Origin: Schmidtea nova
Taxonomy: Eukaryota
Length of the DNA: 64,000 bases
Assembly: GCA_044892505.1 (NCBI GenBank)
Contig: CM097884.1
Location: 27,838,001-27,902,000 of the forward strand
Direction of reading: 5' to 3'
Below, piece by piece: positions 23,595-50,455 of this stretch. The position numbers were made by a program, and so were the translations under genes. The notes under the pieces are model-generated. The model was not told the DNA's origin, made no database searches, and saw nothing but the letters and a program-made list of their open reading frames with translations. The number at the start of each line of letters is the position of its first letter. Within the stretch, counting starts at the first letter, position 1.

Positions 23595-23612
23595 TGGGGG
23601 CTCAGCCGGGAT
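23595..23612 (+). other. Primer-binding site, tRNA-Pro type
   Basis: TGGGGGCTCAGCCGGGAT, 6 nt after the LTR end; 16/18 match to the canonical tRNA-Pro PBS TGGGGGCTCGTCCGGGAT. Confidence 0.85.
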
Positions 23613-25243: not shown

Positions 25244-25298
25244 GAGGCCAATGAGCCATATTGAATGACCTAGCTAGGCGTTATGAGAGATTAAGTTA

Positions 25299-25700: not shown

Positions 25701-26315
25701 TGAATTATAGAGATATCCGGATAAATAGTAACAGAGGGAATATAGACCCTTAGTATAATCGTCGACGAGATTGAGAGTAATGCGCACCAGTAGTTAAGAA
25801 AATGCGAGTAAAGCTGATTATGCAACCTTAAGTAAAGCATGCAAGGAGAATAGTAAAAAATTTTTTTTGGCTGACCGGAACAACCGGCAGAATAAGTAAA
25901 AACGATTGCTAGCAGGGAATAATGAATAGAAATGATAAAATAATGATAAACGAGTCAGAAAGACTCAGGGAATTAGAGCGCTCGAGCGACCAATAAATTG
26001 GGAAACTGTGGGAAAAGTAATCAATTTGATAAAACATAGATAATTATTACGACGTAAATAGATAATTGTGACCAGTCTATAGATAATTTAAATAGACTAA
26101 AAATAAAGGGGAATCTGGGAATTGGGAAATAATGAAAACCCAGTAATAAGTAATCCCGAAAGAAAGGGAATAAAAGCGCGACGATAACAATAATGTATCG
26201 TTGAGGACCTTTGTATTTTAGATATACCAATCAATCAAATCAATCAATCAAGCAAGAAGAATCAGAAAACGATAAGAGATAGAACAGGAAAATTGAGTAT
26301 ACAAAAGTAATCCCC

Positions 26316-35300: not shown

Positions 35301-38300
35301 CTGAAAAGCGGATATTGGCAAATAAAAATGAAGGAAGAAGATAAAGAGAAAACTGCCTTTACCATCGGTAGAGATTTATATCAATTTCGAAAAATGCCAT
35401 TTGGATTAACGAACGCACCAGCATCATTTCAGAGATGCATGAATTTCGTCACCCACGGAATAAAGCAGTGCATGGTCTACATCGACGACTTATTGATTTA
35501 CTCTAGTACATTCGAACAACACATACAGGATATTCGAGATGTATTCGTTAGACTTAGACAATGGAAGTTAAAACTCAAGCCATCCAAGTGTGACTGGGCG
35601 AAAGAGAAAGTAACATTTTTAGGACATATAGTGTCAGCAAAAGGAAAAGAACCGGATCCTAGAAATATCGACAAGGTAAAAGAATGTCCAGTACCAAAAA
35701 CAATAACCCAGATACAAGAGTTTCTTGGGTTGTGTGGATACTACAGAAAGTTTATAAAAGATTACGCCGGAATAGCAAAACCTATACAGGAACTGGTAAA
35801 GAAAGATGTATCATTCATATGGGGAGATGAACAACAAACAGCCTTTGAAACGTTGAGAGATAAATTGATAACCGCACCCATATTGGTACACCCAGACTTT
35901 AAGAAGCCATTCCTACTTGCAACAGATGCAAGCGGATATGCAGCAGGAGCCGTATTAGGACAATACGACGACGAAGGAAAGGAACGCGTAATCGGATATT
36001 ATAGCCGGACATTCAAAAAGCATGAGAAAAATTACTCAGTAACAGAACGGGAAGCACTAGCAATTATATTAGCTATTAAACACTTTAAATATTTACTATG
36101 GGGTCACATCATCTGCATAACAACAGATCACCAACCGCTTGTATGGTTAGGACAGCACAAGGAAACATCCAGTAGATTAATGCGATGGGCAATGCAGTTA
36201 CAGGAGTACTCACCGGACATAAAATTTAAATCAGGAAGAGCGAATGCGAATGCAGATTGTATGTCAAGACTGACATTTCCAGAACTAACCGATCCTGATG
36301 TACAACGAATTTGTGTATTAATAGCGGAGGATTTAGATTTTAGTGAGTTAAAGAAAGATCAACAAGAAGACAAAGAATTAGGACAAATCATAGAGTTCCT
36401 AACATCTCGAAATATGGAAGTATTCAAGGATAATAAGGAACTAAAGGAACATATAGGAAAATATCAACATCGCTACATAATAAATAAAGGATGGTTGTTA
36501 ATACAAGACGGAGAAAAGAGATTGATGTGTTTACCGGAAAACAGAAGGAAAGAGATAATGATCCAGTACCATGATGGGAAATTAGGAGGTCATATGTCCG
36601 AGAAGAAGACAATAAACCGTATGAGACAAAAATATTATTGGCGAACAATGGAAGAAGATATAAAGGAATGGATTAAAAATTGTCTAACTTGTGCAACCAG
36701 AAAGGATAGTGGGAGGAAATGGAAAAACCCGCTACAACCAATGCCGATACCAGCAGAGCCAATGACAACTATAGCAATGGACGTAATAGGACCATTACCG
36801 GAAAGTCTAAACGGAAATATTTATATATTGGTAATAACGGATTATCTGACGAAATTCCCGGAAGCATTTGCCATGCAAGACCAAAAAGCAAAAACCGTAG
36901 CAAAAATTCTAGTGGAAGAAATATGTTGCAGATACGGAACTCCAAAACAAATACTCACAGACCAAGGAACTAATTTTATGAGTGAGTTATTAAACGAGGT
37001 GACAAACTATTTCAGAATAGCAAAATTGAGAACTTCACCATATCACCCGCAAACGAATGGACAAACGGAGCGATTCAACGGCACATTGATTAGAATGTTA
37101 TCAAACTACGTCAGCAAACACCAAACTGACTGGGACGAATACATAAAATTATGTTTAATGGCATACCGAATGTCGATACATGCAGCAACAAAACTAAGCC
37201 CATTTCAACTTATGTATGGAAGAGAATGCAACATGCCCATAGATTTAGAGTATCAGCCACCATTATCGCAATATATGGAAGATGACGACTACGTAACCAA
37301 ATTCAAAGAAAGAATGCAGGAGATATGGAAAACGGCAGAACTCAACATTAAATTTTATCAGGAAAGTTATAAGGATTTACACGACCAGAAGAAAAATGTT
37401 AAAGCGAACGACCTAAAACCAGGAGATTGGGTGATAATAGAAACTCCCGAAATAATACCAGGAACTGTTAAGAAACTCCAAAGACCTGGAAGAGGACCTT
37501 ATGAAATTATATACAAAAAGGACAACAATGTCAAAGTTAAGCTAATAAATCGACCGTTAATACGACCCATATATGTAAACACCTGCAGATGTAAGAAGGT
37601 GCCTAAAACGATAACTACAACACCAGAAAATCGAATAATAACTAGATCACAAACAGCCAGGATAAATATGCTCAGAGCTAACGCAACTGAAGACGACAAA
37701 GCAGAAATAAGGCAAAAGGAAATCAGAAATAAAGAAATCATATTGAAGGCGAGAGAGATAATGGGAAGATGGCATGTTAGAGACGAAGCAGGCATATCAA
37801 GGGATATTAGACATATAATTAGCCGTTACGCACAAGGATTACCAACCGAACCAATTATTTCTGAATTATTGGAAAAAATCCCTGAAATACTCTTATTGAA
37901 AGATGTAGGAGGACAACCAGCCTTACATAATGCGATAGAGTGTAAAAACATGGAAAGAGCAAAAGAATTCCTAAAAATCGCAAAAGAAACAAACCAAAAC
38001 TTGGACGTAGGGAATCGGGAACGAGAAACTCCATTAATGACAGCCGCAATCCACCAAGCAGATAAAGAAATGATAGATCTATTGATAAAAGCTCATTTCA
38101 GTTGGACAGAACGAGATAGAGAAGACAAAACAGTACTAAATCACGTAATATGGAGTTCTCACCAACCAATGCTGAAATACATAATAGCTAACTGCACTTG
38201 GGAGATAGACGAATTGGTTAAAAGAGACATTATCAAAGAGGCAATCAAAATTGGTAAATGCAACACGATCCGTAAGTTAATCAAATGGAAACGACCAGAA

Positions 38301-41300
38301 GAGGATACATGGGTCTTAGACATAAACGAAGTATACAGCGAAGGACAAAACGCGCTGTTAAGATATCTTCTGAAATTTACTTGTGATCAGAAGACATTAC
38401 TAACCTTATTAGACAGAGGAAACATAAACATCACAAAGAATGAAGAAGAATACAAATTCGATAAAGAGAAGGAAGCCTTATTCAATAAGATTAGGAAATG
38501 GTGTGCGAAACCACTTGATAAACTAATAACATACAAAGACATAAACAATTTTAACGAGAAATACCAGACGATAGTAAGCGAATATGAGGAATTAGTAAAA
38601 ATCTTAAACCATCCCGAAAAATGCAAACAGGTTTTAGAGAAAAGAGAAAGAGAAAGTAACAAGAAACTCACACCACTCTTCAAAGCTGAAGCACCATACC
38701 AAGCTAGACTAGATGCGATACAAGAAAAAGCAAAAGAATTGTTACCGGAATTCGAGAATAGTAAACATGCACTGGAAATACTCGGCGCATTAGTTGAAAA
38801 AGTACACGCATACGCAAAAGGAACATACAATGGTAACGACATAGTAATAATAAAAAAGGAGATGCCAGTAACATTCCTATTACCAAAAGACGGAATAATG
38901 CCCATACATAGAGCTCTACGAAATGGCAAAGATAGGAAAGTAATGGAAATTGCAAGAGTAATGCTAAATTGCGGAAGCAATATGAATATGATAGACGAGA
39001 AAGGAGATACACTTATGGTATTTGCAGCAAGGGCCAAAACGAAAACAAAGGTATTAGAAGAACTATACAAAGCAGGTGCAGGACTTACAGGAAAGACAGA
39101 TAAAGATAATTCGATATTGGATGTAGCATTATTAACACACAATTGGGAAATGGTCAATTTCATTAAAACCGTCCCAAATCAGGAAGAAATAGATCACCTA
39201 ACTGATACAGTCAAGAAACCCAGTGTACTAGCAATGATGAACAACGTCGAACTAACAGAATCAATACTTACGTGGATAAATCCTAATACTAACGAACCAG
39301 CATTCAGGATTAATAAGTTTACAGAACATAACCAAAACTGGTGTATAAGAAGTGCCTTAATAACGTATAAATGGCCAGAGATATTGAAGATGTTTATGGA
39401 AAGAAAAGATCTAAAAATCACAACCAGCCCGAAAGAGGAAAAATACACAGGCAAATGGAAAGAATTGATGAAGACATACATCAACAATTGGATCAAGGCC
39501 AAAAAGGAAATCTTGGAACATAAATCCACTAACAAAGTAATACCGGAGCAGGTAGAAACACAAGAATTTGAGGCAAGTAATCTAACGACATTGGCATATG
39601 CAAAATTGATAGAAGAAATCAATGTCGAGGACGACATTTTCGACGAGCCAGGGGGAGATGACAATACAGATAGTGACGACGGTAACAACTCAGAAAATTC
39701 AAACGATCACGAACCACCCGATAAAGAGGAAAACGAGAGAAAAGACAAGAAACGAGACAAGGAAGAAAAGAAAAGTGAAGACGAAAAACAAAGAGATGAA
39801 GATGGAGAACAAGGAAAAAACGACCAAGGAGATAAAAATGACACCCAAAGAACAAGTTATAAATCAACCATAAAACCATTCTTCAAACCAGAATTACTAT
39901 TATTAACAGTGATTTTAACGTTAATTAACCCAAGTCAAGGAATGACATGTGAAGAAAGGGCAATAATACAAATAAAAAACGCAAAAGGAATCGAACGAGT
40001 ATGTTGGTCAAAAAAGGACAAAATCACGGAACAAAATAGCCCGATGGATTGCAGAATCTCAAAACACGAGCAAGAGATCATAGAGATCAACGACCTAGAT
40101 CTAGATACCTGGTACAAAATATGCACCGTTAGGAAACAAAAGCATCCAAGATCACACAACACAATCGCATGTGCAAAATACCAAACACCTAAAGCAGCCA
40201 TGACAATACAACAGTCACCCAAAGGAGATTACATCATCGGAAAATGTGGAAGAACAGAGACACAGGGAACAGAAAACAAAAAACCCCAGGTAATAGATAA
40301 GCAAACAACACCAACCCTACGAATTACAATAAAGAGGCCCGAAGCAAGAGTTGCCACAAACGAAACCGAAAGAGTGTCTTACCAAATGGAAGTATTATGC
40401 TTAGCACTCATACTAATAATAATAAAACGATTAGAGGAAGGAATAGAAATTGAAACTATGACAATAACAGAAGTGGAAGATACACAGAACACTAACATAA
40501 AATGTTGGGCGAGGAATGACGAAGAAATCGGCGTAAACGAAATAAGGAAAAGTCGAAAGCCAACAACAAACAAAGTAATTAAAGTATCCGAAGTAAGAGC
40601 AGACAAGATGTACAAACTATGCCTACTTGAGAAAGAGAGGAACAAGAAAGGTACCACAAAATGTAAAACATTCCAACCTGGAGAGGTAATAAAGTTCCGA
40701 AGGAGAACGAGGAAGAGAAATAAACAAATCAAGCGGAAAGTAAACATAACATTAGAAGTAAAAGAGATAGAACCAAATGTGAAAGGAGTATGCTGGAGGA
40801 AGTACGAAAAGGAAGTAAATAAAAGAACGACACCACAATGTCAAACAAACACAGGAACAACGACGATTCAAATAAAAGGTTTAGAAAGTAAACAAACCTA
40901 CGAAATATGTTTGGTAAAGAAAAATGATCAGATAACGATAAACGACCTAGAATGCGGAATATACACCACTTCATCCGGAACAAGAACTAAAACGTTAACA
41001 CGGAAAAATAAAAGGAAACAACGAAACAAAGGAAAACCGAAGTACACCACTACCTTTAAAAACAATAAACAACCAATAAGCCAGGAAGTTACGACAAAAC
41101 CAGAGAGAAAGACATCAGCAACTCTAACATTATGGAAAATAGAGAATAAAACATTGGAGATATGTTGGATAATAGTCCAGAAAAATATAAGAAGACAATC
41201 AAGAGAGTGCAGAAAAACAAATAAAGAAATCAAGATCGAAAAACTACAATTTATTAGCGAGTACGTCGTATGCGCAATAGAAAAAATGGACAAACTAGGA

Positions 41301-42551
41301 AACCAACAAGAAAGATGCGAAACCTACTATACACCAGCGAACGCAACATCAAAAGAAATAACAAGGAAACTCGAATTCAGGGAACTAAGCCAAACGAATG
41401 AACAAATGGACGCAGAAAAAACAATAACCGACCCTCAAGCAAAATGGACACCTGAAGAAGTTATCAAAGAAGTCAAAAGAAAGCAAGAGGAACGAGAACA
41501 ATTAATGAGAAAACTAAAGGGACAATACGGAATAATGTTCAACCAAAGCGAATCTATACAAACAGACGAGAATAAAGAAATTAAAGAACTAATTGGCTTA
41601 GGAATATTAACAGCGACCATACCAGTAATAATCGCGTTATCAGCTATATGGATACGCAAGATAAACCCAAAGAAATCGGTAACCCAATGGACAAATAGAG
41701 ATAGTACAAGCCATGAAGTGGAAATGCTAGAAGAAAAAGCACGAGAAGAACCAAAAGAGAAAGAAGCAAAAAGCGGAAAACTAGGAATAAACAACAAAGA
41801 CAAGGAAACGAAAGAGACTAAAGGAGAAGAGAAAAAATATGAAAGGCGAACCAGAAGCCTACCGCAGAGTTCAAAATGGTTGGGTCTAACAATAATACTA
41901 ACATTAATCAATAGGGAAGAAGCAACAAACCTACAAGCAGGGATAAAAATAGTAAATGTCCAGGAGGTCGAGAAAATATGCTGGAATAAAGAGGATGAAC
42001 CAATTGGGAAAGATAACCCACTAAAATGTATAATCAGAAAATCCGACCAGGATATAGTACGAATAGAAGGGATGGACAGAGGAATCATGCATCGGATATG
42101 CATAATAGGAAAGGAAAAGAAGTCGGGGCTACCTAAGACAGTCGTATGTCAAAAATACGAAACGCCTAGACTCGAATGGTATAGAGTAAAACCAACAAAG
42201 AAAGAAATCAAAAACACCATAGATCAACCAGCAACTCAGATAAGAAACACAACGGATAAACCAGGAGAAGGAGAGAAAAGCACCAATAAAACGAGAGAAA
42301 GAATATCACCCCAACAAGAGTGCGTATGCATAGCATTAATACTAGCAATGTCCAAACGTATCGATAAAGGAATAATAATAGAACAAATGGCCATAACAAT
42401 AAGGAAAACAAGTAGCAACAAACTATGCTGGGGAACATACAACGAACCAAGGAAGGAATACCAAGTTCAGACAAGCGACGAATCACAAACAAACAAGGAA
42501 ATCGAAATACAAGAAATACAAATGAATGAAGAAGGAAGTATATGTATCTAA
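26316..42551 (+). CDS. gag-pol: Giant Gag-accessory-Env-Pol-accessory polyprotein (5,411 aa from TTG; first in-frame ATG at 26865)
   Basis: Single uninterrupted frame containing CCHC knuckles, DTG protease, YIDD RT, TDAS RNase H, and HHCC plus DDE integrase motifs. Confidence 0.95.
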   Translation: MRKGAKSVVVKPTEKKVGSNSNKKDKNSTTTKSTKKQKAGKDNPQGSKSRKIIRDKSITENDKLSIISNSSSNKENQAEPKENQASELESDETNNDNIEEIEHEIEQEGEIDETNNDNIEEVENEVEPEIEINASDNESIISDNEGIRETESDSSSSKTEDEHNNELETRGNESKITQDSGIEMGEPREEIKDKFSGEPFNGDASKLETFLKEFGIFVEVCKWKAETTVSRIQLYLKDSALDLYLEAKNGTNPPTSWTAIKDFFQQTFGINKVLSEAFIEFSKRKQKMNESNAVYASELKKLAKSVFKDGGPINEELMAAIFIGGLRRPDIRAQVGCQGCKTIDQALETANRFELHMIGSEGRIYLAMDTAQTEPEVNLNNHIPNSQQLNRPPPQRRNEGNKVQNFENQNNYNPQRQTKQCKTCGKLGHWQQECYQNLNCGKCGVKGHSESRCSTIICFNCGRPGHYSRNCGQKSNQRGNWQSNGNRPNYGNQANTVNRPDYGNQQNNNNNNQNKTTPKEIHLMQEVQRLTELINNTTRGNPQTNQQQISMMRKIESENERLNRESQARHAQEWARIQREDEQKQQERERQPLRINMLRATNQTDTREKETTLEMNSIDPNPADNESRKEIVQKDEEVEKEIKKEGETEINQEERRKIWKKGMMVIMPNDHMFRFQYNAKEKVEILFNKVNQMIPGVTKLPREAFLQIGDAPSVKLKLPDIWENVGVTETKRNVMRIKEIESEEIPPPIRHETRIRRIFEGKMIRRRLKEIDELGKKMEKVEVIEDKSEPTPEIDKNEPEPTENIQGETNQIAHINMLRNTTREFSDEEEDSDISSLAGDILNESEDENKEREVIKTSEPTQIKVDEIQKLLDNSLEVIYNEEFMDKKQYRKFMKALLQMNYKEWLQDREIDMLNRYVGKLIEEPLLNYTISIIINTSTPRIWIKTPFTDDIYRWVEDRLGSSYKNKFIYSQNRLVKRRTHLVETGIWPGEITLLSICDEKEEENLQEVAREANTCFERRIKPRLEYEKERVLRKNLNSLIEQIIPQVKKHRKELMRSEYEKLKRCIECIRDTSHTRWSQISHDKLIAKMGKTMFRQGKITDLKISVELPNEDTKEIEVVADCTIRELINVINETLVQREPEDEWEDDIIIQYNEHVLWDHDERRLYKIGIWDNHQTIHVSRMDDTPRETAKDEKKERERRKEVVRKLQQIVEIYRNWRIWPEWENVLEKLNLNRRIRTPVEKQWNEKGKCWEPKEGEYEEEYKRGIEDDCEPEIGRVCMVTRKATPIDLDGPETAAMWLEREKQKTEEFVEILKTNAHGKRKVIKGLADFFVVNGEDITCLRKVAKAIAEYKRVNEWCPEQLDHVIRKWRNQEFSQEIPQKVHLRIIYPNKDKEELWVGIAEKIRDIKKKLRYEPPFHLQHQGRSLDNSLEIGITPAQLDLMNTLTVEAIAGQPLKRKEENHKPHGSISTPSPIKSALTPGTSSRRSETTPRGNRERTPPQPYDVDEIFTDSDDMIEELTELTKEKDDNIFERIQELPTTIQVTNTGETEVEQEIIVEEVNDLTEDETRGAYAENVQLTQEMERWLEERANEPRDVTEETGRATRFVETGTGMDRRPRGRPKTDPATVVIRNKDEKRQDQWELCLKKLNKIAEIKEKETTPICQGEEWISKTIMEILAIIDPELRKYWRLTEISEKAKSLHSAIAPILPEFIKEKTKSNHLDWQGTTMLIKKLTEGAETDNKYVIAIAYTIYNLLTLSRGRPKPTALERHIKNTAKIIAREIEPYVINKGGWETFIKTNQKKTQAKNMKKKFEKILEELAKEQAGTGNVKSSMNLSSIIMMMLIWMISTDSATAFEVFDCDQMKLGEKYSLRGTEQCKDATPVELQKIKKEQWYHVYQEAELIKTMVNECKVQKTRFAFYCGRGHYSAIVMPGTEREPIVLQGEDCEALFKHGEVTTRDKIKIRGKPGMMMQQTYYVAGRITGGEGYCQGETYPIFGVPATNLVVMDTYIVELKSYEAFFEPTTGEMKTLSMCKIDRSMCQTGMSTLVYKPKVNECQLQLLQGAKFDEIQGKTFQEEDDDDKDRAKHLKEALENKRQLKPDHREKRIEMRATPTVLITTNQDVGMRFIKGKATLKCSTTVYETNYPGIYVSKQEVPNAKPKIDTMDIKLHLYVNNKMDFLFHRGQASLQKVYYDLINNDCILNREILKTKLAVAITNPDSAMPLLPLREGHFGRVVGEAMYVYICEKTHASLAATTQLKPGTCTNELEIDYKGKVRYVQPVTRIINPPGFEPNPFNCSNAYGPLYQKPDGKWVMFPGRSEVIAPREFELMQLSKDRQFSDVDVSNNGIYSPKDLEAARQNILFPARREALLSNIVTITGGTDYREGPNYELLLSPAHFKKATENMMKAMWGRFLIFGQMMAGILGVILIIQIVRVIITQMLACFDIYKREKKVNWKMVVGFLPFLAKTMVLHGHSKDIHRIKRLLKILAKMKGTDEEVGRKFKKIMNDEQARQQLKRERKGLWERMKGYKTQNDSSDDDDDDDDYKGGQVYKNQAPQYIEKNPADAWKCYAPPPTLYQEPLQGGKNSTMQMMPMTNVYPMIPEDYKMRRCRSVDPQGDTHTIAVMSSNTGPVLTTTIEINGREIEAMIDTGANISAIDIKWIPQEQRREIERTNVHVIACSKEVVEVAGRWWVKIRHLNTEIDTYVAVIPALSVPCIIGTDLMPALFNEIVIDLGTMRLKDRTGQICAIEAKVTSSKQMIIPARKEKICYVKIDPTIQGDMIFEPSKRFEKRKALPMARGLVNINDDGEIPINVVNFDEEDKIIYENERLGKLTPMMDIELPIEGAEKDKEPTWNIDSELLNEDQRKQLEKLLIEYKDIFAASDLDLGTCDVTLHTIPLTDETPIALRPYKLAEAQKAVAEAEVKKMLDAEVIEPSCSPWQFPVVMVKKKDGTQRFCIDYRRLNTVTKRDTYPLPDINEMLLTLQGAAYFTSLDLKSGYWQIKMKEEDKEKTAFTIGRDLYQFRKMPFGLTNAPASFQRCMNFVTHGIKQCMVYIDDLLIYSSTFEQHIQDIRDVFVRLRQWKLKLKPSKCDWAKEKVTFLGHIVSAKGKEPDPRNIDKVKECPVPKTITQIQEFLGLCGYYRKFIKDYAGIAKPIQELVKKDVSFIWGDEQQTAFETLRDKLITAPILVHPDFKKPFLLATDASGYAAGAVLGQYDDEGKERVIGYYSRTFKKHEKNYSVTEREALAIILAIKHFKYLLWGHIICITTDHQPLVWLGQHKETSSRLMRWAMQLQEYSPDIKFKSGRANANADCMSRLTFPELTDPDVQRICVLIAEDLDFSELKKDQQEDKELGQIIEFLTSRNMEVFKDNKELKEHIGKYQHRYIINKGWLLIQDGEKRLMCLPENRRKEIMIQYHDGKLGGHMSEKKTINRMRQKYYWRTMEEDIKEWIKNCLTCATRKDSGRKWKNPLQPMPIPAEPMTTIAMDVIGPLPESLNGNIYILVITDYLTKFPEAFAMQDQKAKTVAKILVEEICCRYGTPKQILTDQGTNFMSELLNEVTNYFRIAKLRTSPYHPQTNGQTERFNGTLIRMLSNYVSKHQTDWDEYIKLCLMAYRMSIHAATKLSPFQLMYGRECNMPIDLEYQPPLSQYMEDDDYVTKFKERMQEIWKTAELNIKFYQESYKDLHDQKKNVKANDLKPGDWVIIETPEIIPGTVKKLQRPGRGPYEIIYKKDNNVKVKLINRPLIRPIYVNTCRCKKVPKTITTTPENRIITRSQTARINMLRANATEDDKAEIRQKEIRNKEIILKAREIMGRWHVRDEAGISRDIRHIISRYAQGLPTEPIISELLEKIPEILLLKDVGGQPALHNAIECKNMERAKEFLKIAKETNQNLDVGNRERETPLMTAAIHQADKEMIDLLIKAHFSWTERDREDKTVLNHVIWSSHQPMLKYIIANCTWEIDELVKRDIIKEAIKIGKCNTIRKLIKWKRPEEDTWVLDINEVYSEGQNALLRYLLKFTCDQKTLLTLLDRGNINITKNEEEYKFDKEKEALFNKIRKWCAKPLDKLITYKDINNFNEKYQTIVSEYEELVKILNHPEKCKQVLEKRERESNKKLTPLFKAEAPYQARLDAIQEKAKELLPEFENSKHALEILGALVEKVHAYAKGTYNGNDIVIIKKEMPVTFLLPKDGIMPIHRALRNGKDRKVMEIARVMLNCGSNMNMIDEKGDTLMVFAARAKTKTKVLEELYKAGAGLTGKTDKDNSILDVALLTHNWEMVNFIKTVPNQEEIDHLTDTVKKPSVLAMMNNVELTESILTWINPNTNEPAFRINKFTEHNQNWCIRSALITYKWPEILKMFMERKDLKITTSPKEEKYTGKWKELMKTYINNWIKAKKEILEHKSTNKVIPEQVETQEFEASNLTTLAYAKLIEEINVEDDIFDEPGGDDNTDSDDGNNSENSNDHEPPDKEENERKDKKRDKEEKKSEDEKQRDEDGEQGKNDQGDKNDTQRTSYKSTIKPFFKPELLLLTVILTLINPSQGMTCEERAIIQIKNAKGIERVCWSKKDKITEQNSPMDCRISKHEQEIIEINDLDLDTWYKICTVRKQKHPRSHNTIACAKYQTPKAAMTIQQSPKGDYIIGKCGRTETQGTENKKPQVIDKQTTPTLRITIKRPEARVATNETERVSYQMEVLCLALILIIIKRLEEGIEIETMTITEVEDTQNTNIKCWARNDEEIGVNEIRKSRKPTTNKVIKVSEVRADKMYKLCLLEKERNKKGTTKCKTFQPGEVIKFRRRTRKRNKQIKRKVNITLEVKEIEPNVKGVCWRKYEKEVNKRTTPQCQTNTGTTTIQIKGLESKQTYEICLVKKNDQITINDLECGIYTTSSGTRTKTLTRKNKRKQRNKGKPKYTTTFKNNKQPISQEVTTKPERKTSATLTLWKIENKTLEICWIIVQKNIRRQSRECRKTNKEIKIEKLQFISEYVVCAIEKMDKLGNQQERCETYYTPANATSKEITRKLEFRELSQTNEQMDAEKTITDPQAKWTPEEVIKEVKRKQEEREQLMRKLKGQYGIMFNQSESIQTDENKEIKELIGLGILTATIPVIIALSAIWIRKINPKKSVTQWTNRDSTSHEVEMLEEKAREEPKEKEAKSGKLGINNKDKETKETKGEEKKYERRTRSLPQSSKWLGLTIILTLINREEATNLQAGIKIVNVQEVEKICWNKEDEPIGKDNPLKCIIRKSDQDIVRIEGMDRGIMHRICIIGKEKKSGLPKTVVCQKYETPRLEWYRVKPTKKEIKNTIDQPATQIRNTTDKPGEGEKSTNKTRERISPQQECVCIALILAMSKRIDKGIIIEQMAITIRKTSSNKLCWGTYNEPRKEYQVQTSDESQTNKEIEIQEIQMNEEGSICI
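26865..27728 (+). other. gag: Gag capsid-like domain and nucleocapsid with three CCHC zinc knuckles
   Basis: PFNGDASKLETFL capsid-type start. Knuckles CKTCGKLGHWQQEC, CGKCGVKGHSESRC and CFNCGRPGHYSRNC at 27576-27728. Confidence 0.9.
29091..30672 (+). other. Three ubiquitin-like segments, each preceded by a helical domain
   Basis: Best copy is LKISVELPNEDTKEIEVVADCTIRELINVI...IIQYNEHVL...GIWDNHQTIHV (about 29610-29860), which follows the ubiquitin hydrophobic pattern. Weaker copies at about 29091-29310 and 30457-30672. Confidence 0.45.
31240..31710 (+). other. Bcl-2-like helical domain in the polyprotein
   Basis: BH2-like IEPYVINKGGWETFI (GGW at 31686-31694; compare Bcl-2 LHTWIQDNGGWDAFV), preceded by a BH1-position hydrophobic helix (YVIAIAYTIYNLL). 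BH1 NWGR is not conserved. Confidence 0.6.
31815..33650 (+). other. env: Envelope-like glycoprotein (chuvirus G-like, class III fusion type) with internal signal peptide and TM anchor
   Basis: Signal-like MNLSSIIMMMLIWMISTDSATA then FEVFDC at 31881. Cys framework DC..YSL..C / ECK..FYCG..H / CILNREILKTKLAVA..PD..GHFGRVVGEAMYVYIC / CTNEL...YVQPVTRII / C...PLYQ..GKW. TM from 33555. Confidence 0.75.
34200..34560 (+). other. Retropepsin aspartic protease
   Basis: AMIDTGANISAI (catalytic D at 34263) and CIIGTDLM. Confidence 0.95.
35000..35650 (+). other. Reverse transcriptase
   Basis: RFCIDYRRLN, LDLKSGYWQI, MPFGLTNAPASFQR, YIDD at 35478-35489; catalytic motif intact. Confidence 0.97.
35900..36270 (+). 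other. RNase H
   Basis: LATDASGYAAGAVL, YSVTEREALAI, TDHQPL, NANADCMSR. Confidence 0.95.
36540..37660 (+). other. Integrase (HHCC, DDE core, GPY/F)
   Basis: YHDGKLGGH..CLTC, IAMDVIGPL, TDQGTNF, NGQTERFN, GRGPY. Confidence 0.95.
37890..39165 (+). other. Two ankyrin-repeat clusters (about 37890-38190 and 38880-39165)
   Basis: DVGGQPALHNAI, NRERETPLMTAAI, DREDKTVLNHVI; KDGIMPIHRAL, DEKGDTLMVFAA, DKDNSILDVAL. Confidence 0.85.
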
Positions 42552-43331
42552 GAGAGAGGAATCCAAGAGGGAATAGAGCATTGCAAGACATTCCAAAAAG
42601 GAGAGATACTGAAATTCGATGAAGAAGAATTAACAAAGACAGAAAGAACTCTGACATTAACAGGACTCGATCAGACAGTTAAAGGAATATGTTGGACAAA
42701 GCATAACCCAGAAGGGGAAGAAGACAACCTAACCCACTGTAAAGAAATAAAGAATAAAGAAAAAGTCGAATTAAAGAAAATGGAAGTAAATAGGACATAC
42801 GCGATATGTACCTTCACCAGAAAAGGTTCAGAAAAACCAGAATGCGGATTATATCAGATCTCAGAGAAACTACAACAACAGATCGAACCAGGAAACGTGG
42901 AAAACCGAACAAAAGAAAATAACTTCAAACAACTACTAAACCGCCATTGGTCTACACAAGAAGTAATGAACAAAGTTAAGAGTCAAATACAGAAAGAGAA
43001 GAAGCCAGAGGCTCAAACCCAAAATGAGATTAAAGCGAATCAGAATAAAATCAAAGCAACAAACCGTGGAAAAACAGTAATAGGATTAATCAGCATAGGA
43101 ATATTAATAGCATATGGGATAATGACGACAAGCATGATAATATATTGGAGATACAAAAAGAGAAACAAAGCGACAGCCATACAATGGCCAGATATCAAAA
43201 TCATGAAACTAGGAATAGAAATACCAGAGGAGATACAGAAAGAATTTCAAAGAAGAACGAAAGGTAAAGAATTCTGGAAACAAATAGAAGATGAAGAACG
43301 ATACGAAGAAAAGACGATAATGATGGTATAG
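39891..43331 (+). other. Seven Cys-containing FN3-like repeats with signal-like and TM segments, in two duplicated cassettes
   Basis: C-W motifs at 40002, 40503, 40791, 41163, 41979, 42426 and 42690, each followed by I.I..L...T.Y.IC-type strands. TM helices near 41589-41660 and 43077-43150. Confidence 0.6.
42552..43331 (+). CDS. In-frame continuation of the polyprotein after the TAA at 42549-42551 (ORF-finder start 42780)
   Basis: Same frame as 26316, no further stops. ERGIQEGIEHCKTFQKGEILKF..VKGICWTK aligns with the upstream repeat KKGTTKCKTFQPGEVIKF..VKGVCWRK. Confidence 0.8.
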   Translation, partial: ERGIQEGIEHCKTFQKGEILKFDEEELTKTERTLTLTGLDQTVKGICWTKHNPEGEEDNLTHCKEIKNKEKVELKKMEVNRTYAICTFTRKGSEKPECGLYQISEKLQQQIEPGNVENRTKENNFKQLLNRHWSTQEVMNKVKSQIQKEKKPEAQTQNEIKANQNKIKATNRGKTVIGLISIGILIAYGIMTTSMIIYWRYKKRNKATAIQWPDIKIMKLGIEIPEEIQKEFQRRTKGKEFWKQIEDEERYEEKTIMMV

Positions 43332-43461
43332 GGGCGGATTATGACTGTAAATAATAGTGTAAATAACAAAGCATTACCGTAATAGTATGGGTATCGATAT
43401 TATAAAAAAAAAATTGTAAAAAGCTAGAAAAACAAAGTAAATGATGTATATAATTTAGAAA

Positions 43462-43818
43462 ATGACCGAACAGGACGAAACAACTGAAATAACTATGGCT
43501 ATGAGATGGAAGGCACAATGTGATTTATTAGTACGAACAGTCAACTCATTACAGAACCAATTAGCGGAAAGACAAATGTTATTATCAGAAAGTTATAACA
43601 ATTGTTTCGAACAATTACACAGAATAGAGGAACAACAAAGAGCGATAACTGAACTCACCAGAGAAAATCAAACGATAAGCAACACCAATCAAAGACAAGC
43701 AATAGAAATAAACCATTTAACACGAGGAGAAAGAGAAGGATCCGAAGAAGGATGGATGAGTTGGGTAATAAATAGATTAAACAACGAAGCGGAACCAGAT
43801 TCAACGAATGAGCCATAG
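43462..43818 (+). CDS. Accessory coiled-coil protein, 118 aa
   Basis: ATG-started ORF with heptad pattern, same A-rich codon style as the element, bounded by the shared spacer motifs. Confidence 0.65.
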   Translation: MTEQDETTEITMAMRWKAQCDLLVRTVNSLQNQLAERQMLLSESYNNCFEQLHRIEEQQRAITELTRENQTISNTNQRQAIEINHLTRGEREGSEEGWMSWVINRLNNEAEPDSTNEP

Positions 43819-43911
43819 ATAAATAAAGCGGAAAACTGTAAATATGTAAAAATAAAAACAAGAAAAATCCAAAAATAAATGACAAGTCGAATGTATATAT
43901 TATTGTAGAAA

Positions 43912-45288
43912 ATGGACAGAGAAGAACGAATAATCGAAATTTTGAGATTAGAAAACAGAAAATGGAGCAAGAGGCTCACATGCGGAAAATGTAACAATTT
44001 ATTACGAGAACCCAAACAAACGATATGTGGATGTAGAATATGTACAAAATGTATACAAGAATTAGATGCAACAGGAATAACAACATGCCCAGAATGTAAG
44101 GAAGGAAGAATAGTGTTGGACGAAATCAGAACGGACAAAGCAACCCAAAGAGAAATTATGAGCACCACAACGGAGTGCGTAAATACACCTTGTACATGGC
44201 AAGGACAAATAAGTAATCTAGAAAATCATATGGAAAAGTGCGAGGAGAAAGGAGCCGAATGCGAGAAGTGCCAACAAACAATAATTCTAAAGAAGAGAGA
44301 ACAACACAAGGACGAATGTAAAGAAGAAGAAATCGCATGCGAGTATTGTGAAACTCGAGAAACAAGGGGAAAAATCGAAGAAGAACATTTGAATATAACA
44401 GAGGAGAAAGTATGCGGACAATATGTAAGTAACTGTCCAAACAATTGCGAAATAACAGAAGAAGTAAAGTTACATGAACATTGGAAAGTATGTACCGAAA
44501 GACCAAGAGAATGTCCATATAACAAACAGGGATGCAAAGAAAAGCGGACGCGGCAATCAATGAAACAACACCTAGAAGAAGCAGCACTAACGCATGTAGA
44601 AATGACAAACGAAACGACAAAAGAAACGGAACAGACAATCCAGAAATTAGAAAAAGAAGTAGAATCACATAAGATAATGATGAGTTTACTACTAGAAACA
44701 AGAGAGCAGTTTGAACTAACTCGCGAAAGAATGGAAAAGAAAATAATAGCCATAGAAGAATTAGGAAAAGGAATGAAAATACAATATAATCAGTTAATAC
44801 GAGAAATTGACGAAAGAAGGGACTTACCAATTGCACCTTACCTATGGAAAGTAACAGATTTCAGAGACAAACTAGCAGAAGCCAGAAATATGACGAAAAC
44901 AGCAGTAATAAGCCCACCATTTTATTTATGGAAAAACGGGGTTAAAATAAGATTGAAAGTATACCCAAATGGAGACGGAAGAGGACAAGGAACACACGTG
45001 TCAATATTTTTCTCGCTATGTAAAGGAGAATACGATGACCTAATAGAATGGCCCTTGAAAGTAGGAGTCATTATAAGAATCAAAAGTATGGGAAAACCAG
45101 TAGAAAAGTTCTTTGAAACAGACAAACATACGAGTACGAGCGAAAAACCAACGACAGAATGCGGACTAGCAGCAGGAGAACCAATGTTTATAAGGAAAGA
45201 AAACCTATGGGAGCGACTATATGCAGACACGCTATACATAGAGATGGAGAGGCATGAGAAAACAGACAGAAAAGGATGGTTGGCGTAA
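43912..45288 (+). CDS. Full-length TRAF-family protein (RING, TRAF zinc fingers, coiled coil, MATH/TRAF-C), 458 aa, intronless
   Basis: CGKCNNLLREPKQTICGCRICTKC RING; CTWQG..LENHMEKC fingers; YLWKVTDF..SPPFY..YPNGDGRGQGTHVSIFF..GEYDDLIEWP MATH signature. Confidence 0.93.
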   Translation: MDREERIIEILRLENRKWSKRLTCGKCNNLLREPKQTICGCRICTKCIQELDATGITTCPECKEGRIVLDEIRTDKATQREIMSTTTECVNTPCTWQGQISNLENHMEKCEEKGAECEKCQQTIILKKREQHKDECKEEEIACEYCETRETRGKIEEEHLNITEEKVCGQYVSNCPNNCEITEEVKLHEHWKVCTERPRECPYNKQGCKEKRTRQSMKQHLEEAALTHVEMTNETTKETEQTIQKLEKEVESHKIMMSLLLETREQFELTRERMEKKIIAIEELGKGMKIQYNQLIREIDERRDLPIAPYLWKVTDFRDKLAEARNMTKTAVISPPFYLWKNGVKIRLKVYPNGDGRGQGTHVSIFFSLCKGEYDDLIEWPLKVGVIIRIKSMGKPVEKFFETDKHTSTSEKPTTECGLAAGEPMFIRKENLWERLYADTLYIEMERHEKTDRKGWLA

Positions 45289-45401
45289 TGAAGGAAGTAA
45301 CCATGTAAATAAAATGTATAGAAACAATATGAATTAACAAATAATCAAAAACAATAAAAATAAAAAATGATTAAATATTCTTTTTATCTGTAATTATAGA
45401 A

Positions 45402-46463
45402 ATGGGAAATATAGAAGTAACCTTACAAGAAGTAACAGTACATCAAGACGAAATGATCAGAAATCACATGGAGCGGATTGGGATATGGATTCATGCCTAT
45501 TATCGAAAACAAGAGGAATTGGAAAGACAAACCGAAGCACTAAGAGAAGCCGAGAAAACGAATCAAAGAAGTAGAGAAAAAATAGAAGAAGTCTACAAAC
45601 TGCTAAGACAACAAAACGAATACTACAAAGAGATGATGAAAGAGCGACGAGAGGATAGGGATAGACAACAAATAAAAACAGACCATAAGATTCAGTCAAT
45701 CACAGAACAAGCAAGATATTGGAAGAAAGAGGCAAAAGACTCTTACAAGGAAGCAAGGGAGATAATAGAACGAACAGCGTACAGCGATGATTGGAAACTG
45801 TTTAAAGAGATCGATGAATTAAAAGAGGAATTAGGACAAAAGATCAGTCAAGAAACGTCAAATAAAGTATGGAGTAAGAAAAGACAACAATTTATCAGAG
45901 AACAAGCCAAGAAAATAAAAGAATTAACTTATCAAGTACGAAGAATGGGAGAAGATTTAGCCAATCAAGAACAATTAAAAGGTATGCTGACCGGAATGTG
46001 GAATCACAAGGAAGAAAACATGAAAAGAGACATAAATGGATATCAAGGAGTGATCACCCAGAAGAAAATAGAATTAAAAAGAACTAAAGAAAGACTGGAA
46101 GAAACGAGGCAGAGTTATGAAGAGAACATAACAAATTTGACAAAAGAAAACGAAGAACTGAGAAAGAAGTTGGCAGAAAAACCAACACCAATAAAAGAAA
46201 CAAGTATCACAGCAGCAGTGACCGAAATGATGGAGAAGGAAGAGAGAGAGAAAAAATTGGCAGAACTAGAAAAACAAATTGAAACCCTAACAGAACAAGC
46301 GAACTATCTGGAATACTTATTAGATGAAGAGATCCAGATATCCCACACATACCGAGAAGAAGTCGAAATGTGGAGGAGCACGGTAATATGGATGCCACTC
46401 CCCATAAATCAGGTGGAACCTCAAGACGAAGGTTTTCACGAACCCAACGAAACCCTTGTATAA
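45402..46463 (+). CDS. Accessory long coiled-coil protein, 353 aa
   Basis: Long ATG-started ORF, Glu/Lys/Arg-rich heptads throughout; no recognised domain. Confidence 0.75.
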   Translation: MGNIEVTLQEVTVHQDEMIRNHMERIGIWIHAYYRKQEELERQTEALREAEKTNQRSREKIEEVYKLLRQQNEYYKEMMKERREDRDRQQIKTDHKIQSITEQARYWKKEAKDSYKEAREIIERTAYSDDWKLFKEIDELKEELGQKISQETSNKVWSKKRQQFIREQAKKIKELTYQVRRMGEDLANQEQLKGMLTGMWNHKEENMKRDINGYQGVITQKKIELKRTKERLEETRQSYEENITNLTKENEELRKKLAEKPTPIKETSITAAVTEMMEKEEREKKLAELEKQIETLTEQANYLEYLLDEEIQISHTYREEVEMWRSTVIWMPLPINQVEPQDEGFHEPNETLV

Positions 46464-46538
46464 ATGTGCAGAAACCCAGTGTAAATAAATTATGTAAAAT
46501 AAAAAGTGTCAAGCTGTATTGACCAATGTATAAAAGAG

Positions 46539-47108
46539 ATGAGAAAGCTCGCAATAGCAACACTCCTATGGTTAACAACCATTACCCTACAGAGAGAAGA
46601 TTTACAACTAACCGAAACCCAATTACGAGTGCTACCCGACAAAATCTACCAGAAAGTAGACAGACTAATCGAAGAAGTAATTAGAGAAATCAACGAATTC
46701 CGACAGAAATACCCCCACAATCAAGATCGTCAAATCCAACAAATCTTCGATAACCAACAACTGAAACTAGAAGAAACCCGAAAAATCCTGAAAGAAGGTA
46801 GAGAACCCATAAAAAGCCTATCCCAAGCTGAAATAGAATATCAAGAGAAATGGATCATAGCAATCATCATAATCCTAGCAGTCAGCACAACTATCATCGC
46901 AATCACAATCCTGCTTGCCTCGTATAGAATAAAAATCCTAAAACAAAAGCAGAAAATCTACAACCAAACCTCCAGACGAGATAACCGAGCTCAAAGACGA
47001 ATAAGGAGCCATCTCAACCACATTCAAACCCACTACGAGCTACAAATAATCAACGAGAGGACCCGAACTCAACCCCAAGCGAGCCAGACGATCGAACAAA
47101 TTGTATAA
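46539..47108 (+). CDS. Accessory predicted type I membrane protein (ATG at 46539; ORF-finder GTG start at 46506)
   Basis: Signal-like MRKLAIATLLWLTTITL, helical ectodomain, TM WIIAIIIILAVSTTIIAITILLASY, basic tail. Confidence 0.7.
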   Translation: MRKLAIATLLWLTTITLQREDLQLTETQLRVLPDKIYQKVDRLIEEVIREINEFRQKYPHNQDRQIQQIFDNQQLKLEETRKILKEGREPIKSLSQAEIEYQEKWIIAIIIILAVSTTIIAITILLASYRIKILKQKQKIYNQTSRRDNRAQRRIRSHLNHIQTHYELQIINERTRTQPQASQTIEQIV

Positions 47109-47280
47109 ACATTATGATAACTTATCGAACTATTGTGACAAATCATTACATTTTGACTATTTAATGACAAACTTTATGATATGTATAAATTCGATCACCT
47201 TATGTGATTTTTCTTTGCATGTATAACTTTATAAAACTTTTTATGGATGATGAATATAAGTATTTATGTATAATTAATTG

Positions 47281-47310
47281 CGGGACGCAATTTTAGGGGT
47301 CCCCGGGTGA
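47281..47310 (+). other. Polypurine-tract position, non-canonical G-rich sequence
   Basis: cgggacgcaattttaggggtccccgggtga lies directly before the TG of the 3' LTR. Confidence 0.5.
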
Positions 47311-48730
47311 TGTTGGGCCCGCCAAATCACCTAAAAAACACAACAAAACGAACAAAAGCACGAAACAATAAAGAAATAATAAAAATAAAAATAGCAAGAA
47401 AAACAAATTAAAAATAACAATAAAACGACAAATAATAATTGACAAATTTTCAGTAAGAGGAAATTTTGAAAATAAACCGGTAAACAACCGCAAAGGGGGG
47501 CCTGAAATCGGAAAAAATAGAATTAAATAAAATAATAGTGCAAATAATTAATTAATTACTTGGAAAATCAGGACCACCCAGCGAGAAACCGGAAAAGGAA
47601 ACAAAATAATGTTTAGATTAGATTAAAATAATAAAAATACTTTGATGGACGGCCTGATCCTGATTGGTCAATCCAACCAGACGGATCAGTATAAATACCG
47701 ATCCAAAAATCACAGACTTAGACTTTTACTTTTCACTCAAGATCAAGACTAAACTTTGATTTGAGTAAATTTTTTGAAAAAACCGAATTTCATACAAGGA
47801 ACCACATATTCAAGTACGGAAGTAATTTTTTTTATTTTTTATCTTATATGATGTACCCATGATTTTTAGTTTAATTAAAATCTTATATGTAAACGTTATC
47901 TTATATTTTTTTTTTGATATTTTAATGCATATAGTTATACTTCCTATGCTGCTCACGCGGCGAGGGAGTCCGAGTCGTCGTTGTGGGGCCTCACGGTCTC
48001 ACATGGCGGTTCAACCTTTTTATTGTTTTGGTTTTCATTTTTTGGTAGTTGAAATAATTAAACTAAATCATTTAACTAGATATTTATCAGCGAGATTAGA
48101 GAATTTTAATGCTTATTTAGTCGAGTAAAATTTTCAGTCACGAAATATCGATAATGCGAATACGTCCAGACAGTTTTCTGGCGATAAGTAAAAAATCATC
48201 ATTTGGTTGTACAGGGGACGTAGCACAGCGGGCGGTAGAGAAGGTCTAAGGGGATACCAGGAGGGGGTAAAGTACCCGATAGGTGTCAGGTACCCGAGAC
48301 AAATGGGTTGACACGCTGAGGTTAAATTTGAGGACGAGAGAGCAGGTATAACATGACAAGTTCTATAAAATTTTCCAAGTAAATCGATCAAACTGATGAA
48401 TTTCAATTAAGGTCAAGGTACGGGATATAGCAACTGCATGACAGAGATTAGTAAGACTGAAAATCATAAATTCTAAAAATACTTTAAATTCCAATCTAAT
48501 AAAACCAAAAATCTGTAATTCTAAAAATACTTTTATGCCGATCGCTGTACATAGCGCGGTAGCTCAAACTAATCTTATCCTGATCGTCGTACATGGCGCA
48601 GGGAAACAAATATCTTCTCCGACCGTGGTATATCGCGGTGATGGTTTAAAAATGAGATGGTATTAACTAACAGGATTGAGATTAAATATAATTTACATTC
48701 AACTCTTTATTGAATAAAATAAAATGACAG

Positions 48731-49207
48731 ATGCTGACATCATTGAACGAAAGATTAATGCGGATTCGGAACTCAGGAAAGGAGGACAGGGCGAATGGAT
48801 GGGCAAACCAGCTCAAGGAGTTGCCCCAGCCAATTCTGCGGACCATTAACGCCCAAGCGTACAAGTGGCGACAAGGGTTTGGTCGAAAGTGCCCGTTTTC
48901 CATCTGGGACGGAGGAAGCGATGAAATACTCTATCGAGGAGGACCGAACTGGCCTATTTCCCAAAGGCCGTACTCAAATAAGTTTGGCCGATTAATCGTA
49001 CTGATCAAGGACACAGATGGACGGACAAGCCGTGTAATTTATTGGGGGCATATCCCTCGTCGAGAGCTATGCCAACTGGGTCTGTACGAGTTCTTACCAC
49101 GAAAACCGTTCGGCAAGGAGTGCCAGAAAGGACAACCCTCGTTCTCTTGGGCTCGTCTTCGTCAGAAACCGATTAACAGCGAATTGCATAGTTTGTTTCG
49201 GAGATGA
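48731..49207 (+). CDS. ORF-A copy in 3' LTR
   Basis: Same translation as 21868-22344. Confidence 0.8.
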   Translation: MLTSLNERLMRIRNSGKEDRANGWANQLKELPQPILRTINAQAYKWRQGFGRKCPFSIWDGGSDEILYRGGPNWPISQRPYSNKFGRLIVLIKDTDGRTSRVIYWGHIPRRELCQLGLYEFLPRKPFGKECQKGQPSFSWARLRQKPINSELHSLFRR

Positions 49208-49385
49208 AAACTGATTAACAAATGTTGAAATTGTGTTAAAATATTAGAGTTCATTAGTGAATTTTTTGTTTTTGAGTTTTGTTTCGCATTTTAATAGTTC
49301 ATATTCGTAACCTAATAATCCTATGATCAGATTTTAATTTTCATATAATTAAATCATAGAGTAAATATCCTAAATAAATTATAGA

Positions 49386-49982
49386 ATGAACCCCGATTTG
49401 ATGCAGAGAGAATTTGAAAAGATGTGGCGGATTCGGAGAGCCCAGGACAAGGAATTGGGTCTCCTCAAGGCACAATTGATCAAAGCCGAGGCACAGATTG
49501 CATACTTGCGCAAAAGCTGGTTTGCTCCGGCCAGAATGAAAGAGCAAATCAGTAAAACCGAGCGCGCCCAACAGACTGCAGCCGATTACCAAATGGAATG
49601 GGAGGCTACAAAGATAGAGCTCCGAAAATGCCTCCATTCCGTGACTGCCTCATATATTGAGAAGGAGCTCAGAGACCAAATCCGTCCGGTTACGTACCAA
49701 GCGTGGACATCAGAAAAGAAGACGGTAAATTCCATTGGCACGGATGTCGCCGATCTAATCGAAAGTCGGAATGAGACAGCTCCTGCAGCAAATTCAACCA
49801 CCTCATCGGCGAATACGCACCAAAAACGCAAGCGCATTGGGCAGAAACGGCGAAGACAGAGAAAATTATTTGCCCAGCAATTACAAAGCCAAGTCGATGG
49901 TCTACATCAGATGACCGAGGAGGCATTATTGGCGGAGATTTTTCCTCCGGCGGGAGTTTTTACCGAACTCATTAAAAATTAA
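49386..49982 (+). CDS. ORF-B copy in 3' LTR
   Basis: Same as 22523-23119 except one L/F change. Confidence 0.85.
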   Translation: MNPDLMQREFEKMWRIRRAQDKELGLLKAQLIKAEAQIAYLRKSWFAPARMKEQISKTERAQQTAADYQMEWEATKIELRKCLHSVTASYIEKELRDQIRPVTYQAWTSEKKTVNSIGTDVADLIESRNETAPAANSTTSSANTHQKRKRIGQKRRRQRKLFAQQLQSQVDGLHQMTEEALLAEIFPPAGVFTELIKN

Positions 49983-50455
49983 ATAAATTGTTGTATTGGC
50001 TTAAGAATTTCATCGTTCGTTTAAATCGATTTAATTAACTTTACCAATGATTAGATAAAGATAGAACAAAAGTATAAATTCATTTTACAAAATATCGAAT
50101 AGAGATAATTAAATAATTAAGCGAGCATTCGTTGAAATACTTCTCGCAGACTGAGCAATGATAAAAATAAATTTTCTGAAAGATTCACGCGGAATACATA
50201 AGTAGATGATTAAAGCATAAGTCCTTCTAACGGCAGCGATGAACCCGTAAACATAAATGGGGAGTAGTACTAGCGATAGTGCTCACCTGCCCATCATTGT
50301 TTAACCACCCTGCGCATCACCAACTTGATTATATAGGGAAAAAATCAAGGGCGCTTGAGTGTAGAATTGCAATTTTGTGCATGATCATGGATGAGGGAAT
50401 CCCTAGTCATTGTTAGAACATTTTTCATCTAACCCCTCCATGAACCCAGCAAAAG

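Follow-up and report, generated by a model that had tools for sequence, protein, structure and literature searches.

A stop-anchored motif and a splice-acceptor-like end recur in the spacers before the accessory genes of a giant Burro-like LTR retrotransposon

How could a giant retrotransposon make and control separate messages for a row of genes that lie behind its polyprotein? The question is raised by a 64,000-nucleotide (nt) stretch of contig CM097884.1 of Schmidtea nova (assembly GCA_044892505.1, positions 27,838,001 to 27,902,000), which is called the window below, meaning the whole stretch of DNA that was analysed. It carries a gypsy-type long terminal repeat (LTR) retrotransposon of Burro-like layout, in which four accessory open reading frames (ORFs), each preceded by a short spacer, follow the polyprotein frame. 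The first-pass annotation had reported one 8-mer just behind the stops of four consecutive genes and had proposed an operon-like array with a shared 3'-end or translational control signal, perhaps adjusted to stem or germ cells, which is speculative; it missed the retrotransposon context and the acceptor-like half of the spacers. We found that every spacer joins a motif pair anchored to the upstream stop with a splice-acceptor-like AG directly before the next ATG, and we tentatively propose that the two halves act as an RNA control module. The spacers and ORFs are as follows (aa, amino acids):

43332..43461, + strand: spacer 1, 130 nt; TGTAAATA at 43346 and 43358, TGAT at 43442, TGTATATA at 43445, acceptor-like TAG ending at 43458, without AATAAA
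43462..43818, + strand: accessory ORF of 118 aa, no Pfam family above the cut-off
43819..43911, + strand: spacer 2, 93 nt; TGTAAATA at 43837, TGTAAA at 43845, TGAC at 43880, TGTATATA at 43892, acceptor-like TAG ending at 43908
43912..45288, + strand: TRAF-like ORF of 458 aa with RING, TRAF zinc fingers and MATH (MATH_2, E 6.8e-21)
45289..45401, + strand: spacer 3, 113 nt; TGTAAATA at 45304 overlapping AATAAA, TGTATA at 45315, TGAT at 45368, acceptor-like TAG ending at 45399
45402..46463, + strand: accessory ORF of 353 aa, no Pfam family above the cut-off
46464..46538, + strand: spacer 4, 75 nt; TGTAAATA at 46480 overlapping AATAAA, TGTAAA at 46493, TGAC at 46520, TGTATA at 46527, weaker acceptor AAG ending at 46536
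46539..47108, + strand: last accessory ORF, 189 aa, with one hydrophobic segment and without the stop-anchored motif behind it

Counted from the stops at 43331, 43818, 45288 and 46463, the motif TGTAAATA starts at +15 (and again at +27), +19, +16 and +17, which leaves 14, 18, 15 and 16 nt between stop and motif. A second TGTA stands at +27, +27, +27 and +30, and in all four spacers two UGUA lie 8-13 nt apart. The positions given by the first-pass annotation were confirmed for the five TGTAAATA and the two TGTATATA sites, and its offsets of 15, 19, 16 and 17 are right as positions after the stop. Its four stops are likewise real, but the first of its "genes" is not a separate one: the polyprotein frame has an in-frame stop at 42549-42551, and the ORF that follows this stop and runs to 43331 forms the C-terminal part of that frame. 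Its base composition (about 30% GC) and its expectation of one such 8-mer per 10 kb needed correction, and we obtained 35% GC for 43332..46538, 17-29% for the spacers and, for the internal region, an expectation from independent bases of one copy in 18 kb of each strand. Behind the last accessory ORF, the non-coding stretch before the 3' LTR (47109-47310, + strand) contains TGTATAA, a variant of the spacer motif, three times, at +74, +112 and +159 after the stop, and AATAAA is absent there.

TGTAAATA is the sole 8-mer common to all four spacers, and no 9-mer is common to all four. A shuffle test was designed to allow for the word being chosen after the fact, and any 8-mer common to four shuffled spacers with offsets within 4 nt was obtained in 1 of 5000 dinucleotide shuffles, compared with 327 of 5000 when position was disregarded. 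All five + strand copies of TGTAAATA in the 23,722-nt internal region lie inside the 411 nt of the four spacers. The wider form TGTANATA occurs 7 times in the spacers (0.4 expected) and TGTA 15 times (6.0 expected), and neither count was reached in 5000 shuffles; of the 15 TGTA, 7 continue as the complete UGUANAUA, more than spacer composition predicts (p=3e-5). Sites of the full motif are 7 sense and 0 antisense in the spacers, compared with 0 and 3 in the 16.5 kb polyprotein frame. The position of the motif varies by 4 nt relative to the stop and by 57 nt relative to the next start. The positioning is thus real and not random. It supports the idea of an operon-like array whose shared signal is on the sense strand and anchored to the stop.

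It is very improbable that the pattern arose by chance or is a relic of spacer duplication without present function. The spacers are 78% A+T, the patterns were picked after the sequence had been seen, and the count of TGTAAATA across the whole window is not significant (10 compared with 5.8 expected, reached by 8 of 100 shuffles), but the shuffle results (1/5000 and 0/5000) speak against such an origin. The spacers are also not clearly alike overall (z 0.7-2.2 over 6 pairs), so the motif was retained while the remainder differs. Homology of the spacers by descent is unsupported by the same z values, and no orthologous spacers or paralogues of the accessory ORFs were found inside the 64-kb window.

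The other half of each spacer is fixed to the next start. Three further accessory ORFs lie 5' of the polyprotein, and the LTR leader contains a candidate donor:

20951..20956, + strand: GTACGG, candidate 5' splice donor at the end of a leader that has no ATG over about 100 nt; function putative
21868-22344, + strand: LTR ORF-A
22523-23119, + strand: LTR ORF-B
23920..24381, + strand: RING accessory ORF (zf-C3HC4_3, E 3.4e-11), with CAG 3 nt before the ATG and AATAAA at the stop

An AG is found 0-3 nt before the next ATG in 4/4 spacers (TAG in three, AAG/GAG in the fourth), and TGAT or TGAC, which is read as a branch point, sits 16-31 nt 5' of this AG in every spacer. YAG stands 0-3 nt before the ATG in 6 of the 7 accessory ORFs (AAG/GAG in the seventh), compared with 16 of 155 in-frame control ATGs of the polyprotein and 52 of 590 control ATGs outside the element. 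The combined TGAY+AG rule, which was framed after seeing the data, holds for 4/4 spacers compared with 5/155 polyprotein and 19/584 outside control ATGs. An independent check comes from three solo LTRs in the window that belong to related families (54-61% identical): at four of five testable ORF starts the ATG is preceded by YAG at a distance of 0-2 nt, and TTCAG lies 13 nt upstream of the fifth. Within every spacer there are also 2-4 internal ATGs, and all of them precede the acceptor-like AG, so scanning through the spacer would be hindered, and splicing would remove these ATGs. The GTA of the candidate donor is invariant in 4/4 aligned LTRs, and the accessory ORFs behind the polyprotein lie 22-25 kb from the LTR leader. 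This anatomy and its statistics were shown directly, and we consider it likely that the acceptors are used.

The LTR leader also has a GC-rich element of two hairpins (21076-21149 and 13418-13512 on the + strand, 2800-2895 on the - strand and 5086-5180 on the + strand), which is flanked by invariant ATAG and GGT and has folding z-scores of -4.9, -3.9, -5.1 and -0.9 in the four LTRs, in this order. It could be a second leader exon or a structure of the TAR or packaging type.

If the acceptors are used, is the splicing in cis or in trans? We lean modestly towards cis splicing. The main rival, which rests on the same acceptor evidence and which we rate as unlikely, is an operon of the spliced-leader (SL) type, in which UGUA and AAUAAA would cleave and polyadenylate the upstream cistron and the host spliced leader, trans-spliced onto the AG, would cap the next. 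Its geometry agrees with the co-oriented spacers of 75-130 nt and the AG before all four ATGs. According to the published excerpts used here and below, operon distances of Macrostomum peak near 100 nt (PMC8629364), the median from 3' end to acceptor is 99 in S. mansoni, SL trans-splicing is described in Schmidtea (both PMC12582326), and a subgenomic RNA of the C. elegans element Cer1 takes SL1 (PMC3315495). But AATAAA is not clearly enriched and spacer 1 lacks it, a U-rich downstream element is absent, the flatworm acceptor UUNYAG fits only 2/4 spacer acceptors, and a candidate cis donor lies upstream, invariant in its GTA though weak in two LTRs. A cis donor tends to outcompete the spliced leader (PMC4558846, excerpt).

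Which factor could read the stop-anchored half? The first-pass annotation had offered the Pumilio/PUF element and the CFIm polyadenylation element. Of these, the PUF reading is the stronger, since the word shared by the spacers is exactly 8 nt long and the extension of TGTA goes beyond spacer composition, and the CFIm/poly(A) reading is weak. AATAAA adjacent to the motif in three spacers, as had been noted, was found again (it overlaps TGTAAATA in two spacers and follows 6 nt behind in the third), but AATAAA and its variants are not clearly enriched in the spacers (AATAAA 8 compared with 5.2 expected, 622 of 5000 shuffles). The T content at +20..+60 is 17-29% after the stops upstream of spacers and 39-49% behind six other stops, and a U/GU-rich downstream element was not found behind the spacer stops in this interval. 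A terminating ribosome covers the RNA to about position +15. The Pumilio site of Xenopus cyclin B1 is given as UGUAAAUA in a published table, and a planarian Pumilio is needed in neoblasts (PMC5855632, excerpt). We give a PUF protein an even chance of being the reader of this predicted site.

CFIm could enter in another way, through alternative terminal exons, in which paired UGUA would be CFIm25 elements that boost a weak AAUAAA only when the acceptor of that exon is used, and the PUF match would be a by-product of UGUA abutting AAUA(AA). Acceptor use is coupled to the poly(A) site of the terminal exon. The UGUA pairs in 4/4 spacers fit this scheme, as does the AATAAA that overlaps or follows in 3/4, the spacer without it being the one that ends the genomic/polyprotein frame. 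A CFIm25 homologue is present in planarian, but CFIm59/68 were not found and planarian poly(A) sites are described without upstream UGUA (PMC5068929, excerpt). Moreover, 5 of the 7 perfect 8-mers do not run into AATAAA, and the clearer poly(A)-like sites of the element (ORF-B, RING) are without paired UGUA, so we judge this explanation to be rather unlikely.

We therefore return to Pumilio/PUF and cis splicing, and propose that every spacer serves the giant retrotransposon as an RNA control module with two parts; for the full mechanism our confidence falls a little short of an even chance. The 5' LTR would most likely drive one transcript. The AUG-free leader of the 5' LTR would be joined to alternative acceptors in the 3' halves of the spacers (the branch-like UGAY with AG 0-3 nt before AUG), and with such an acceptor before each AUG, each accessory gene would be made as its own spliced mRNA with its ORF first. 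The unspliced RNA would read through as genome and polyprotein message, and 3' ends would form either within spacers 2-4, at their weak AAUAAA, or in the 3' LTR. The 5' half of each spacer, in which a perfect UGUAAAUA begins +15 to +19 and another UGUA(A/U)A +27 to +30 after the stop, would be a miniature 3' untranslated region (UTR), through which host Pumilio/PUF would set translation or stability of the message ending at that stop. The full-length RNA, bearing all 7 perfect sites, would likewise come under Pumilio/PUF control.

Several observations weigh against this proposal. On the splicing side, the TGAY+AG rule holds for 0/3 of the LTR and RING ORF starts, the spacer acceptors are A-rich and without a pyrimidine tract, and the donor match is weak in 2/4 LTRs. 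On the side of the motif, there is no copy behind the element's four remaining stops (those of LTR ORF-A, ORF-B, RING and the last ORF) or in the comparable 178-nt spacer between the LTR ORFs A and B. Two of the 7 perfect sites lie 11-14 nt before an acceptor and would be outside any spliced monocistronic mRNA, the AATA half of TGTAAATA starts AATAAA in 2/5 copies, and the predicted mean unpaired probability of the 7 sites is only 0.44-0.75. Finally, the core of the motif is also found in hairpins of the LTRs, and 3 of the 8 hairpin copies lack the U1/A8 needed by PUF; GUANAU is used there in a form that PUF should not bind, so another reader is possible. The hairpins of the 5' LTR are:

21673..21776, + strand: three hairpins with GUANAU loop, upstream of LTR ORF-A, sharing their core with the spacer motif

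Further such sites lie at 48536-48639 and in the solo LTRs at 13978, 14064 and 5803 (+) and at 2261 and 2209 (-), with 1-3 hairpins per LTR, 85-259 nt 5' of LTR ORF-A and with varying stems. The 8 distinct copies come from four LTR families, their loop N takes all four bases, and the closing pairs are U-A in 5, G-C in 2 and C-G in 1, counts that are circular because the hairpins were partly found by requiring a stem. Across the window 11 of 188 GTANAT are closed by at least 4 pairs (3.8 expected), and all 11 are on the sense strand in the LTR segment upstream of ORF-A. The hairpins have no Rfam match. These data show that the retroelement family uses the GUANAU core as an RNA signal, and the hairpin array is a candidate export, packaging or protein-binding element. 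A presentation of the spacer motifs in hairpins was rejected, closing stems being absent there.

An element-encoded or other non-PUF RNA-binding protein might then read GUANAU both in the LTR hairpin loops and in the unstructured spacers. Such a protein would serve in the export or packaging of unspliced RNA, or would protect stops that are followed by long 3' UTRs against nonsense-mediated decay; Rev-like export and known decay shields are the analogies. The excess of stem-closed sites, the varying closing pairs and loop base, the Arg/Lys-rich stretch of LTR ORF-B and the anchoring of the motif to the stop are in its favour. But the spacer sites are not closed by a stem, U1 and A8 are retained in 7 of them, and ORF-B has no identified family (ESM Atlas gave nothing reliable), and we regard such a reader as improbable.

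A signal at the DNA level, that is, forkhead-type sites or TATA-like boxes serving as internal promoters, is very improbable as well. GTAAATA, the forkhead consensus, occurs 5 times in the spacers, and TGTATA lies 12-20 nt before three ATGs. However, all 5 GTAAATA have the same orientation and are fixed to the stop and not to the start, TGTATATA is unlike a forkhead site, and transcription from a TATA box 12-20 nt before the ATG would begin within the ORF. The promoter reading was rejected for this unsuitable geometry.

The element in which the spacers lie is composed of the following parts, in addition to the ORFs given above:

20448..50451, + strand: giant gypsy-type (Burro-like) LTR retrotransposon, 30,004 bp, with TG...CA ends and an AAAG 4-bp target duplication
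20448..23588, + strand: 5' LTR, 3,141 bp, 3 mismatches to the 3' LTR
20827-20834, + strand: TATAAATA, CCAAT/TATA-like promoter in the 5' LTR
26865..43331, + strand: polyprotein frame, Gag(CCHC)-Env-PR-RT-RNaseH-IN-ankyrin, with three hydrophobic segments
47311..50451, + strand: 3' LTR

The insertion is recent, because the LTRs differ at only 3 positions and the TG...CA ends and the AAAG duplication are present. The polyprotein frame of 5,488 codons, interrupted by the in-frame stop mentioned above, holds in one frame zf-CCHC Gag knuckles, a fusion protein of the Monjiviricetes (mononegavirus) type (E 2e-71), PR, RT, RH and IN, followed by ankyrin repeats (Ank_2, E 4.5e-12). Its nearest Pol relatives (44-49%, for example P0061, P0071 and P0106) have the same Env-before-Pol order, the named Pol matches are mostly at 29-44% with ordinary layouts, and the Env search gave 2 matches. 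The accessory ORFs had no match in 20 Env-Pol relatives chosen from 133 proteins, and the matches of the TRAF-like ORF have 24-36% identity and are spread over many animals. LTR ORF-A and ORF-B are both kept in diverged solo LTRs (30-66% protein identity). Rfam gave 0 matches at the gathering score and 0 tRNA genes were found in the window, the far flank of which is 22% GC.

Several other features of the element and its surroundings were observed. Solo LTRs and fragments crowd around the element at 316-3525 (-), 4456-10567 (+) and 12770-15864 (+), with related LTR fragments near 3774, 10556, 16274, 17059, 18979, 52442, 53943 and 54918, and one solo LTR of the cluster is broken by an inverted pol-like fragment; the cluster may be an insertion hotspot or a piRNA-cluster-like region. 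A primer-binding-site-like stretch at 23595-23612 (+), 6 nt past the 5' LTR, presumably resembles a tRNA-Pro site. Two adjoining tandem arrays of 29-nt and 32-nt units occupy 24826-25763 (+) in the 5' internal region. The 643 nt at 26222-26864 (+), behind an acceptor-like TTTTAG at 26221, contain no ATG (8.5 expected from base composition, with TG depleted there), and the polyprotein frame is open across them save one TAG at 26280-26282, so the Gag start may lie further upstream, reached through splicing or a non-AUG codon. The C-terminus of the polyprotein (about 39900-43331, +) has repeated cysteine-bearing modules, a weak Fn3-like match and hydrophobic segments, which resemble the ectodomain of a captured receptor.

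Burro-like elements are already known, as are Pumilio sites and subgenomic splicing; what appears to be new is the repeated stop-motif-acceptor-start cassette in a Burro-like retrotransposon. The literature searched, with primary Burro studies outside its scope, held no account of the spacer design or of Pumilio sites on retrotransposon accessory genes; the excerpts of PMC8532177, PMC11410931, PMC13465017 and PMC10954484 have nothing on the spacer design, and the Burro section of PMC6431247, as excerpted, does not deal with the expression of accessory ORFs. Among the genes of Burro-type elements are some for apoptosis and for ubiquitin signalling, and Burro1 reportedly supports stem cells of planarians (as cited in the excerpt of PMC13465017). 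The cassette points to a way in which a mobile element could produce and regulate a message for each of the genes it has acquired, with predictions precise to the base for four splice junctions, a donor in the leader and seven Pumilio sites, and if Pumilio is the reader, a conserved stem-cell regulator would be tied directly to the control of transposon cargo. A bolder generalization, which we offer as a speculation that is probably not right in full, is a plug-in cassette grammar of acceptor, AUG, cargo gene, stop and Pumilio pair. By it a retrotransposon would add captured host signalling genes as an operon that is resolved by splicing, possibly with the host spliced leader, and gated by stem-cell Pumilio of the host, through which the element would sense the state of the stem cell, timing TRAF and other cargo and switching genomic RNA between translation and packaging.

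Compared with known systems, the element is closest in layout to the planarian gypsy giants Burro/GYPSM1 (PMC6431247, excerpt), a likeness that rests on the published description of their layout and not on sequence comparison. They are likewise about 30 kb with one ORF of about 5,000 aa, and have in common with the element here Gag, in-frame Env, PR-RT-RH-IN and ankyrin repeats, as well as TRAF/MATH and RING cargo, accessory ORFs and tandem repeats. The size description of Burro (long LTRs, internal region up to 25 kb) agrees with LTRs of 3,141 bp and an internal region of 23,722 bp. The place of TRAF differs, being a downstream accessory ORF here, upstream in the D. tigrina element and inside ORF1 in Burro1 (PMC6431247, excerpt). 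No BIR domain, the IAP-like cargo of Burro1, was found in any scanned ORF, and ubiquitin/SUMO-like and dUTPase-like motifs gave no Pfam match, where the published calls used the more sensitive HHpred. A BCL2-like domain before env is suggestive: 5 of 7 phmmer rows are Bcl-xL at weak E values (1.7-2.1), and with a model at pLDDT 53 the Bcl-2 family makes up 25 of the 48 listed Foldseek rows, none of them under E 0.4. With BIR not found and Bcl-2 only suggestive, we call the element Burro-like and not Burro1.

The Pumilio response element UGUANAUA, for example UGUAAAUA of Xenopus cyclin B1 (PMC5855632, excerpt), is matched here by the same exact 8-mer, in sense orientation, just 3' of stops and paired; unlike known Pumilio elements, these putative sites are carried by the RNA of a retroelement, keep a constant distance to the stop and stand beside candidate acceptors. 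The SL-resolved operons of nematodes and flatworms (PMC12582326 and PMC8629364, excerpts) likewise have co-oriented genes about 100 nt apart with an acceptor beside the AUG, but the array here, known from its sequence, is inside an LTR element, with a weak poly(A) signal and a candidate cis donor upstream. HIV places acceptors before its accessory AUGs, and the adenovirus late unit is a further analogy. Subgenomic splicing of Cer1 (PMC3315495, excerpt) shares with the element here the acceptors directly before accessory starts and the need of the unspliced RNA to skip them. Unlike retroviral and Cer1 splicing, the element here has non-overlapping cassettes of the same design, each preceded by a stop-anchored motif pair.

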